Source of the DNA: a phage | Length of the DNA stretch: 64,000 bases | Sequence record: PX104379.1 | Direction: 5' to 3' (one strand) | Shown: positions 9,401 to 13,143 of the stretch, in pieces | Numbering within the stretch: the first letter of the stretch is position 1 | Layout of the letters: the number at the start of each line of letters is the position of its first letter | The notes under the pieces: model-generated | Told to the model about the DNA's origin: nothing | What the model saw: the letters and a program-made list of their open reading frames with translations, nothing else | Databases searched by the model: none | Made by a program: the position numbers and the translations under genes

Positions 9401-10405
9401 TTAACTTACCAATTCAATCCAAGCCGGACGAAGTACATCTTGTACCATTTTAACTAATTCCTTTTTAATCAAAGAAGGATTATCGGCTTGAGTTAAAGTA
9501 ATACCTTCACGAGAAGTTTCTTCCAAAATATCTTGAACAGTTAGTCCCATCACCTTTCCAAAATCTTTTGGACCAATTTCGCCAATTTTAGAAATAACGT
9601 TATTTACTCGGTTTAGTGTAACGTAACAAGCTAAAATCCCCACCAATTTGTTATCAGCTTCTGACAGTTCAACTTTAGCTTTAATAGGCTTATCAGACTT
9701 TTTCTTTTCACTAAATTTAGAATTCTTGCATTTGATGGCTACACGATTGCGATTAGGCAGCCAAGAAGGATAACAAGGTTTCAATACATATCCTTCAGCG
9801 GTAAATACTTCGCCTTTGGCTTCAGCTTTCCAAACACATTTGTTAGCGTCAATTAAACCTGCATTATCTACGGTAAAATTATAAGACGGAACAACAGAAT
9901 CCAAATCATTTGGAAGTTTAATAAGATCTTCAAATTTACCACGACCCAAAAGTGGAGCGATTTTAAACCCAAATGAATTACAAAACGATTCCATCATGTA
10001 ATCATCAACATAAGTTACATCACCACTTTCGGTAGTGACAATAATGTCAAATACATAAAAATCTTTATCGCCATAATCAACATTCTTCTGAATGCCAGGT
10101 CCAGCGAATTCGCCAAAAACTTGATAAGTCACAACAGCTGAAGTTTCCATAATTTCTTGGACAGCTTTAATAGAATCTTCGTAATTCTTTAAAATAATTT
10201 CATAACCGAAGAAATCTTCAGCAGGAAGAATCGGTCCAGTACGTTTAGCGCAAGTTACTTTATCACGCTCAATAATCAATGAGAAATTTGTGCCGTGAAT
10301 CTTTTCACGAGCTACCCATTCGCCGCTAGTCAATCCCAAGCTATAAAGTTTTTCAATAAATTTAAAGTTGTAATGATTTTCAAGACTGCTATACTTTTTA
10401 AACAT
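9401..10405 (-). CDS. rnlB: RNA ligase 2 (Rnl2)
   Basis: 334 aa; nucleotidyltransferase lysine motif KIHGTN near N-terminus; matches T4 Rnl2 as recalled. Confidence 0.9.
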
Positions 10406-10414
10406 AATTAATCC

Positions 10415-10693
10415 TCAAAATGTAATTTCTAACCAATCACCATCACGCTGATCACTATTGACTTTAAAATTAAATCCTTCTTTTCTCAGCCAATCACCAA
10501 TTTCCTCAGTAATCAATTTATCGCGAGCAGTACAATAATAACTAAAATATGTTTTACCTTGTTCAGCTGCTTTATTAGCAAGTTCTGAAAAATCTTTAAT
10601 AAAACACTCTAGCTTAAACTGTTTACTTTTTAATGCTTTTTCACGTAATTGATTAGCAAAAGATTCATTTTCATAAAGATCATACTGTTCCAT
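10415..10693 (-). CDS. Hypothetical protein (position of T4 24.2)
   Basis: 92-aa ORF, start overlaps next gene; no recognisable motif. Confidence 0.55.
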   Translation of the reverse strand: MEQYDLYENESFANQLREKALKSKQFKLECFIKDFSELANKAAEQGKTYFSYYCTARDKLITEEIGDWLRKEGFNFKVNSDQRDGDWLEITF

Positions 10694-10895
10694 TTTTCAC
10701 CTTTTTATTGATATGTCTTTTTCTATAGACAACTTTTTCTCGAGTTTCAAATTTATTCTTAGCAGTCATAGCTCGAGCCCATAATACAGCCACTTCTTTC
10801 GCCTGTAAGTTTAATTCACGAGCAATTTCAATAAATGACTTTCCAGACTCATGAAGAGTAAACACCACAACCTCAGTTCTCATAATCAATCTCAT
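10680..10895 (-). CDS. Hypothetical small protein with helix-turn-helix-like segment (position of T4 24.3)
   Basis: 71-aa ORF; GKSFIEIARELNLQAKEVAVLWARA resembles an HTH. Confidence 0.5.
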   Translation of the reverse strand: MRLIMRTEVVVFTLHESGKSFIEIARELNLQAKEVAVLWARAMTAKNKFETREKVVYRKRHINKKVKNGTV

Positions 10896-10984: not shown

Positions 10985-12403
10985 TTATGGATAGGTATAG
11001 ATGATACCAGTTTCTAAAGCAGTTTTATGAATGATGTATCCATTACGTGATTCTTGAACATCAACTTCTGGATAGTCTTTCATCATCTTCTGGAGAGTGT
11101 AACGATGCAAGTAGTACTTACTATCTGGATCGTCAGTTTTCCAATCTTTACCTTCTTCGGTCATTTTTTGGATTTCATCCATAACCCACCAACCACACCA
11201 GATGTAAGCTGAAGTACGATGTGGAAGAGGATGAACATAAGGTAATTCACCTTCTGGCTCTGGAGCAACTTTATCAGTTACCTGAACTTGACCTTCCGCC
11301 GTAATAGTTTTGCTATCATAATCAGCAGCAGTAACAGTTGCAGTAACTTCAATAGTTTGACTTCCAATAGATGAGGTATCAACGGTATATACATTAGTTG
11401 ACCCTTCTACAGGAGAAGAGTCTTTCTTCCATGAATAAGTAATTTGCGCTTCTTCTGGAGCATCAGTGACATTAGCAGTAAATGTAGCCGAAGCATCTTG
11501 CTGAACATTAATAGAAGGAGGAGTCAATGTAACCTGTGGATTCATTGTCTTCTTATTAACCGTTAATGATACTTCATTAGAAGTAACTTCCTTTGCATCA
11601 TAATCTGCCGCGGTTACTTGGGCTACGCATTTAATTCTTTTTACTCCACTTGTAGTTGGAGTATAGTTAAATGTAGAGTTAGTTTCTCCACCAACTTGTG
11701 AATCATCTACATACCACTGATACGTAGCAGACGCTCCAACTGGTTGAGAAGCTAAGGCAGCAGTAAATTGAACTGGGGTTCCAATTACTCCAGCTGAAGG
11801 ACTATCGGGAGTTACTGCCAAAGTAGTTGTCTGTGTCTTTTTATTAACAGTCAATGACACTTCATTAGAAGTAACGCTTAGTGCATCATAATCTGTCGCG
11901 GTTACTTGAGCCACACACTTAATTCTTTTTACCCCGCTTTCGGCAGGAGTGTAATTGAACGTAGCGTTAGTTGCTTCGCCCACAGGAGAATCATCTACAT
12001 ACCATTGATAAGTAGCGTTTGCGCCCGATGGCTGCGAAGCTAAAGCGGCAGTAAATTCAATAGCTGTTCCGATTACTCCAGCGTCAGGGCTATTAGGAGT
12101 TACAGCTAAGGTAGTCGTTTGTGTCTTATTTTGAACTGTGATAGTTGTTGTCGCTTCAGCCGTTTCCGGGCCTCCTTCAGAAAGTGTATTTGTTGCAACT
12201 ACTTTAATAGTCTTTTGACCGGCAGGTCCTTTTAGTACATAACTAAAAGTTGCTTCAGCTCCATCTTGTGGAGCATCATCTACAGTCCAAGCATAGGTAA
12301 TAGTTCCGCCTCCAGTTTCACCACTGGGTGTAGCAGTAAACTGCTGAGTCTGATCTATAACTCCAGTAGGTGTTTTAGGAGTTATATCAACTGTAAAAGC
12401 CAT
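10985..12403 (-). CDS. hoc: Hoc, highly immunogenic outer capsid protein, four Ig-like domains plus capsid-binding C-terminus
   Basis: 472 aa; N-terminus and C-terminus (..YIWCGWWVMDEIQKMTEEGKDWK..) match T4 Hoc as recalled; internal tandem domain duplication. Confidence 0.9.
   Translation of the reverse strand: MAFTVDITPKTPTGVIDQTQQFTATPSGETGGGTITYAWTVDDAPQDGAEATFSYVLKGPAGQKTIKVVATNTLSEGGPETAEATTTITVQNKTQTTTLAVTPNSPDAGVIGTAIEFTAALASQPSGANATYQWYVDDSPVGEATNATFNYTPAESGVKRIKCVAQVTATDYDALSVTSNEVSLTVNKKTQTTTLAVTPDSPSAGVIGTPVQFTAALASQPVGASATYQWYVDDSQVGGETNSTFNYTPTTSGVKRIKCVAQVTAADYDAKEVTSNEVSLTVNKKTMNPQVTLTPPSINVQQDASATFTANVTDAPEEAQITYSWKKDSSPVEGSTNVYTVDTSSIGSQTIEVTATVTAADYDSKTITAEGQVQVTDKVAPEPEGELPYVHPLPHRTSAYIWCGWWVMDEIQKMTEEGKDWKTDDPDSKYYLHRYTLQKMMKDYPEVDVQESRNGYIIHKTALETGIIYTYP
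11549..12124 (-). repeat. Tandem duplication of a 288-bp Ig-domain coding unit inside hoc
   Basis: Two adjacent 96-aa units (TQTTTLAVTP...SLTVNKK) nearly identical at protein level; DNA units visibly similar. Confidence 0.8.
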
Positions 12404-12412
12404 AAGTTATCC

Positions 12413-13093
12413 TTATTTTAATGTTACGAAAGAAGAGTTGCGTGTTTCACGAATTAAAACTGATCCGTCACGGTTAATGTAATAAATTAAGCTAAATAAA
12501 GTTTGGTGTGCTGACGCATGTTCAAAACTAGTTGGGTGAGATTTCCAATCAGGAGTTTCAGCAATCCATTGATAAATCCACCAAGGAACAGTGCAGAATC
12601 CTGGATTTTTTCCAATCAGCTGAAGATTCGGACTAAAGTTTTCCGGAAGAGTAAATACAGACGGCTTTTCAGATTCAATAATCTCAGCTACAGCCTGTTC
12701 AAATTTTTCTTCAACAAAAGGAGTATCTTCAATCAAAACATCGGTATTTTCAGGAATTTTATCCGTTTCTACTACTTCAATTTTAATGTCAGATTTAACC
12801 GGAGAATCAATCAAAAGTGCTGCTTCTGGATTGACTTCTTCATCGTCATATTTTAATCCCTCTGCAGCATCAGCAGCATCAATTAAGTCTTTAATAGATA
12901 ACCCATCAGTCTCTGGCATAGGTTCACTAGCGAGCTTCTGGAGGGCTTCTTCAATATCAACAACGATATTATCAAAAGATTTATTCTTTTTGACCTTTAT
13001 ACCAAACTGTTCAGCATATTCAGCTAATTTAGCTTTAGCTTCTTTGTTATCATCAAGAGCCTTCAGCTCTGCAATATAATCTTTATCTATCAT
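12413..13093 (-). CDS. inh: Inh, inhibitor of prohead protease
   Basis: 226-aa ORF immediately upstream of hoc on same strand; positional match. Confidence 0.75.
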   Translation of the reverse strand: MIDKDYIAELKALDDNKEAKAKLAEYAEQFGIKVKKNKSFDNIVVDIEEALQKLASEPMPETDGLSIKDLIDAADAAEGLKYDDEEVNPEAALLIDSPVKSDIKIEVVETDKIPENTDVLIEDTPFVEEKFEQAVAEIIESEKPSVFTLPENFSPNLQLIGKNPGFCTVPWWIYQWIAETPDWKSHPTSFEHASAHQTLFSLIYYINRDGSVLIRETRNSSFVTLK

Positions 13094-13106
13094 AATATTT
13101 CCTCAG

Positions 13107-13114
13107 TATAAATA
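13107..13114 (+). promoter_or_regulatory. T4-type late promoter TATAAATA upstream of uvsW
   Basis: Exact TATAAATA about 30 bp before uvsW ATG. Confidence 0.55.
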
Positions 13115-13143
13115 TAGATATATTTATTACATGGTATTTAGAC

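Follow-up and report, generated by a model that had tools for sequence, protein, structure and literature searches.

The phage DNA analyzed here almost certainly comes from a T4-like phage that carries the common RB30-type long form of hoc, in which an old, in-frame tandem copy of domain 2 forms part of a standing copy-number polymorphism. The hoc open reading frame (10985-12403, minus strand) lies in a window of 64,000 nucleotides, which is the whole stretch of DNA analyzed (record PX104379.1), and is intact, encoding 472 aa (Table 1). The closest hoc records, including those of vB_EcoM-CHD94UKE2 and WilhelmHis, were 98% identical over the full length of the gene.

Identity and setting of hoc

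T4 Hoc (PDB 5vf3_Z, 376 aa) matched the window protein with an E-value of 1e-226, and across its first 25 kb the window shared ~98% identity with Tequatrovirus genomes, those of teqsoen and AdolfPortmann among them. The neighbors of hoc are inh on one side and the small ORFs preceding rnlB on the other, an arrangement also seen in T4 and AdolfPortmann. The source of the window is thus a T4-like (Tequatrovirus) phage, and the protein is the orthologue of T4 Hoc. The lengths given in the original prediction, 472 aa for this Hoc and 376 aa for that of T4, agreed with the ORF, the PDB entry, and the T4 record. The two proteins aligned in two stretches, specifically aa 1-109 of the window protein with T4 Hoc 1-109 and aa 189-472 with T4 Hoc 93-376; thus, the length excess over T4 is exactly one 96-aa unit.

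Table 1. Coordinates of hoc, its predicted domains, and its neighbors in the window.
Feature	Position	Strand	Basis
hoc CDS, 472 codons and stop	10985..12403	minus	ORF list; T4 Hoc match
Ig-like domain 1, aa 1-93	12125..12403	minus	95% nt identity to T4 domain 1; pLDDT ~90
Unit A, first domain-2 copy, aa 94-189, without counterpart in T4	11837..12124	minus	Repeat finders, codon register, unit tree
Unit B, second domain-2 copy, aa 190-285, orthologue of T4 Hoc domain 2	11549..11836	minus	Identity to T4, unit tree
Ig-like domain, counterpart of T4 domain 3, aa 286-381	11261..11548	minus	Aligns with T4 Hoc aa 190-285; 87% nt identity; Pfam
Putative C-terminal capsid-binding domain, aa 382-472	10988..11260	minus	Nearly identical to T4 Hoc aa 286-376; dN 0.005
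inh (prohead protease inhibitor), upstream neighbor of hoc	12413..13093	minus	ORF; same place in T4 and AdolfPortmann
Downstream neighbors of hoc: two small ORFs (positions of T4 gene 24.2 and its neighbor) and rnlB	9401..10895	minus	ORFs; gene order of T4 and AdolfPortmann

Two further observations concern the surroundings and the database records of the gene. In the window, the end of inh (13093) and the start of uvsW (13144) are only ~50 nt apart (13094-13143), and the same gap in T4 and in the otherwise 98% identical AdolfPortmann holds a gene for a homing endonuclease of the GIY-YIG type (segE in T4). The missing gene explains why the window aligned to Tequatrovirus genomes in two pieces, and its occurrence between inh and uvsW is an ordinary presence/absence polymorphism. 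The names under which Hoc is filed vary widely and include ‘PKD domain-containing protein [Escherichia coli],’ ‘endonuclease [Shigella sonnei],’ ‘baseplate wedge subunit,’ and ‘capsid whiskers protein’ (protein clusters P0009, P0016, P0028, and others; record MN648445.1); these look like phage sequences filed with bacterial assemblies, together with mis-annotations. In MZ501066.1 (FriedrichMiescher) and PQ511148.1 (NHEP10), hoc is annotated as ‘Hoc part 1 / part 2’ and aligned in four pieces, and the gene appears to be interrupted or frameshifted in both.

Anatomy of the tandem repeat

Two repeat finders, independent of each other, agreed on tandem units within hoc. One reported two head-to-tail units of 288 nt at 11546-11833 and 11834-12121 with 77% identity, and Tandem Repeats Finder reported a period of 288 with 2.0 copies, 78% matches, a score of 714, and no indels. 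Set in codon register, the units fall exactly where they had been predicted, at aa 94-189 (unit A) and aa 190-285 (unit B) and together spanning 11549-12124. The units are identical at 223 of 288 nucleotides (77%) and 80 of 96 amino acids (83%), and 43 of the 65 nucleotide differences fall at third codon positions. The longest exact run common to both is 17 nt. Repetition of this extent goes well past anything that chance would produce.

Short direct-repeat families (D2-D4) were also found across all four Ig-like domains (11315-12395), with a spacing of 282-288 nt and 61-81% identity over 21-41 nt. Domains 1 and 3 thus appear to be paralogues of the domain-2 unit of far greater age.

Fold and domain assignment

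Among Pfam models, PKD scored 39.8 bits against a gathering cut-off of 23.5, with its best stretch at aa 195-253; PKD_4, PKD_3, and Ig_2 scored slightly above their cut-offs, and Ig_3 and I-set, both matching aa 289-373, scored below theirs. An AlphaFold2 model built with 28 homologues contained beta-sandwich domains at aa 1-91, 94-187, 190-283, and 286-376 (pLDDT ~90), followed by a C-terminal domain of low confidence (pLDDT 35-59). A Foldseek search of the PDB with this model returned four-Ig strings as its top matches, specifically Dscam1 Ig1-4, Sidekick-2 Ig1-4, and ICAM-5 D1-D4, and also matched RB49 Hoc (3shs). The original prediction thus correctly explained the extra length by an additional Ig-like domain encoded by an in-frame tandem repeat, as borne out by the 288-nt units, by a T4 alignment that is one unit short, and by the model.

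The last 90 residues showed almost no substitutions relative to T4 Hoc, with a dN of 0.005 for the C-terminal segment, whose T4 homologue is the capsid-binding domain at residues ~281-376. The role of this domain in Hoc is capsid binding (Fokine et al. 2023, PMC10385173), and identity to T4 alone suggests the same role for aa 382-472 of the window protein. Near identity to the T4 binding domain likewise suggests that one Hoc would sit at the center of each gp23 hexamer and that the protein would be dispensable for growth.

Divergence and orthology of the units

By the Nei-Gojobori method, units A and B differed by a dS of 1.10 and a dN of 0.12 (dN/dS 0.11); their synonymous sites therefore differ about as much as is possible. 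For the window and T4, dS was 0.09-0.34 across domain 1, domain 3, and the C-terminal domain. The low dN/dS between the units indicates that both are under purifying selection.

Ten phages supplied units for a neighbor-joining tree of DNA p-distances: that of the window, RB30, CHD94UKE2, wV7, UGKSEcP2, T4, Ozark, phiC600P9, MLP2, and fPS-2. Within this set of ten phages only, first units were 80-98% identical among themselves and second units 90-95%, with 74-79% identity between the two classes, and in the tree the first units formed one clade and the second units another. The single unit of T4 shared 93.1% of its nucleotides with unit B and 80.6% with unit A, and that of Ozark was 94.8% identical to unit B. 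Since the T4 unit is closer to B, unit B is the orthologue of T4 domain 2, and unit A is the one absent from T4. First units of different phages were separated from each other by a dS of 0.45-0.75.

Two parts of the original prediction do not agree with these data. It had described the units as nearly identical, and they share only 77% of nucleotides and 83% of amino acids at a dS of 1.10; it had also read their similarity as a sign of recent duplication, which is contradicted by the same dS, by the clades that follow unit position, and by the hundreds of genomes that share the architecture. A dS of 1.10 together with separate first- and second-unit clades indicates that the duplication is not recent, and the A/B split is older than the divergence of the phages compared.

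Distribution of unit number in Tequatrovirus

The hoc query matched 685 phage records, and in an evenly spaced sample of these the gene was either 1419-1425 nt or 1131-1137 nt long. Unit A matched at 892 places across 617 phage records. In 23 of 60 evenly sampled records, at least two such places were present, from which we estimate that ~40% of the ~600 Tequatrovirus records carry two or more units. Hoc proteins of 376-377 aa made up 82 of the best 120 protein clusters, those of 468-472 aa made up 30, and those of 568-570 aa made up eight. The two-unit structure is common to hundreds of independently sequenced Tequatrovirus genomes, and a three-unit form was found in ~20 phage records, including UGKSEcP1/2, EC101, YUEEL01, and ESh16. 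In the three-unit proteins (568-570 aa), the first unit falls with window unit A and the second with unit B, and they differ from the window in having a third, more divergent unit.

This third unit, as seen in UGKSEcP2 (301-2013), is the most divergent of the three and is 84% identical to window unit B. Protein clustering also placed such third-unit (‘C-type’) sequence in the second position of some two-unit proteins. The same protein-level clustering of units suggested that most single-copy genes are A-type; the DNA sequences bore this out only in part, and the clustering was not used for proportions.

Comparison with previously recorded Hoc proteins

The repeat has a prior record. AY101183, a 2002 entry of 1,570 bases for RB30 hoc alone (protein AAM52483.1), contains a repeat_region at 367-944 with a note that an intragenic repeat gives rise to an additional immunoglobulin-like domain, and carries five domain features, all labeled ‘immunoglobulin-like domain,’ including the C-terminal one. 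The novelty implied by the original prediction is thus lost, as RB30 hoc was already annotated with the repeat. RB30 Hoc resembles that of the window in gene length (1419 nt), in the position of two 288-nt units, and in its five-domain layout, with 93.6% identity over the whole gene; the differences are allelic only, the window first unit being 86% and the second 92% identical to their RB30 counterparts. Other Tequatrovirus Hoc proteins of 472 aa, among them those of RB27, teqskov, WilhelmHis, and CHD94UKE2, are likewise similar to that of the window. In T4 Hoc (376 aa; PDB 5vf3, 8t1x, and 8t9r), the gene occupies the same genomic position but has one domain-2 unit, B-type with a short A-like patch, instead of two.

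In a wider set of 650 homologues, Hoc consists of a conserved capsid-binding domain and a variable Ig-like string of 1-10 Ig domains (Fokine et al. 2023, PMC10385173). This general plan is shared by the Hoc proteins of RB49 (3shs), the Serratia phage Muldoon, and PhiPNJ-9 (Fokine et al. 2023; Fu et al. 2024); however, their sequences are distant from that of the window and their domains differ in number and origin, with 10 Ig domains in Muldoon and no domain 3 in PhiPNJ-9. Our literature search for a paper on the RB30 hoc repeat found none, and the prior record is composed of the GenBank annotation and the general statement of Fokine et al. (2023). The window hoc is the common long ‘RB30-type’ allele, which is old, widespread, and already annotated rather than new.

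Recombination and the direction of change

At the 65 sites that distinguish units A and B, the units of other phages are made up of runs of A-like and B-like states. The T4 unit is B-like, except for an A-like patch at unit nt 228-248, near the 3′ end (ATDYDALSV), and the first unit of CHD94UKE2 carries the B-like state in this patch. The single unit of MLP2 is A-type overall (89% identity to window unit A against 79% to unit B) and is A-like in its 5′ part and B-like at its 3′ end. Single-copy genes thus occur with A-type (MLP2), B-type (T4 and Ozark), and chimeric (fPS-2 and phiC600P9) units, which points to repeated changes in copy number by recombination.

In the window, the patch lies at 11877-11897 in unit A (ATDYDALSV, as in T4) and at 11589-11609 in unit B (AADYDAKEV), and the two versions are swapped between first and second units among phages; some relatives with a Hoc of 472 aa differ from the window in having this segment exchanged. 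These swaps resemble the outcome of gene conversion, or of recombination in patches, between units. The pattern as a whole would fit repeated unequal or homologous recombination that both alters copy number and exchanges patches.

The more distant phage RB69 aligned only over the C-terminal 19% of hoc, and because such distant phages align at the C-terminal fifth only, they provide no usable outgroup for the units. Long alleles may have formed by gain or T4-type alleles by loss, and the short form of T4 may accordingly be either ancestral or a deletion product.

Origin of the two-unit gene

A tandem duplication specific to the window phage or its close relatives would account for two DNA units that align free of gaps, but the dS of 1.10 and the 77% nucleotide identity between them speak against it. 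Both units moreover have their own orthologues in RB30, wV7, CHD94UKE2, UGKSEcP2, and hundreds of other records. A recent duplication was rejected on the basis of the dS and this positional orthology, and we give it virtually no credence. A spurious expansion of the repeat during assembly, the true gene having one unit, is equally hard to credit; it draws only on the familiar risk of mis-assembly at tandem repeats, and it conflicts with the intact reading frame and with the same structure in hundreds of independent assemblies and in the 2002 record AY101183. Since no exact run common to A and B exceeds 17 nt, reads of ordinary length place unambiguously. An artefact was rejected on this ground and on the agreement of many independent assemblies, and the concern over repeat collapse or expansion raised alongside the original prediction was unfounded.

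More consideration is due to the suggestion that the two-unit gene formed by unequal recombination between A-type and B-type single-copy alleles that had already diverged and met at co-infection, in which case the 77% identity would reflect divergence of alleles older than the duplication event. Both single-copy types exist today (MLP2 at 89% identity to A; T4 and Ozark at 93-95% to B), and the patchwise mosaics indicate frequent exchange between units and between phages. However, A-type and B-type single-copy genes could just as well have arisen from a two-unit gene by deletion, and the A-like 5′ part and B-like 3′ end of MLP2 are what would be expected of an unequal crossover that deletes a unit. 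We regard this origin as a tentative and somewhat unlikely one. Even so, the two-unit arrangement would be old, as first units have diverged from each other to a dS of 0.45-0.75.

The reading we prefer is that of an old tandem copy maintained as a polymorphism, and it leads to the following model. Hoc would be a monomeric fiber anchored through aa 382-472 at the center of the hexamer of the major capsid protein (gp23), as described for T4 Hoc, with four Ig-like beta-sandwich domains projecting outward in a row, compared with three in T4. The fourth Ig domain results from the in-frame tandem doubling of the domain-2 unit of 288 nt. Its copies split long ago relative to present-day Tequatrovirus diversity and are both kept by purifying selection, with copy numbers of one, two, or three forming a standing polymorphism in Tequatrovirus. 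Homologous or unequal recombination, between units as well as between co-infecting phages, would change and reshuffle the copy number.

Functional implications

Binding of mucin glycans by Ig-like domains (the BAM model) has been reported for the Hoc proteins of T4, PhiPNJ-6, and PhiPNJ-9 (PMC10385173, PMC11853027), and MUC2 binding through domain 2 is retained in a Hoc without domain 3 (Fu et al. 2024, PMC11853027). By analogy with the T4 Hoc literature, the flexible Ig string of the window protein would adhere weakly and reversibly to mucin glycans or bacterial surfaces. The fiber is predicted to be ~45 Å longer, which is about a quarter of the 180 Å given for the four-domain fiber of T4, and the extra domain would supply one more potential binding module. 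An altered adhesion of the longer fiber, as had been proposed from the sequence, is plausible as a candidate effect. Our literature search found no functional comparison of three-Ig and four-Ig Tequatrovirus Hoc proteins, and no paper in which isogenic phages that differ in their number of Ig domains (three, four, or five) are compared.

As a discovery, the window hoc is of low value, being one more copy of an allele that is present in hundreds of T4-like phages and was annotated more than 20 years ago. For users of Hoc in display or in mucosal phage therapy, its relevance is that the protein exists in three-, four-, and five-Ig forms. Because the number of Ig domains varies, N-terminal fusions would stand at differing distances from the capsid, and T4 Hoc as a reference is not representative of the genus, given the share of records with more than one unit.

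A more speculative reading, and one we consider improbable, is that unit number (one, two, or three) reflects selection rather than neutral drift, as a polymorphism that tunes fiber length and valency for adhesion across mucosal and bacterial-surface settings, with frequent unequal recombination as the switch and with both units diversifying independently as binding modules. The abundance of all three forms, the purifying selection on both units, and the repeated changes in copy number are compatible with it. The copy number of Hoc domain 2 may in any case offer a natural series in which fiber length can be related to mucus adherence.
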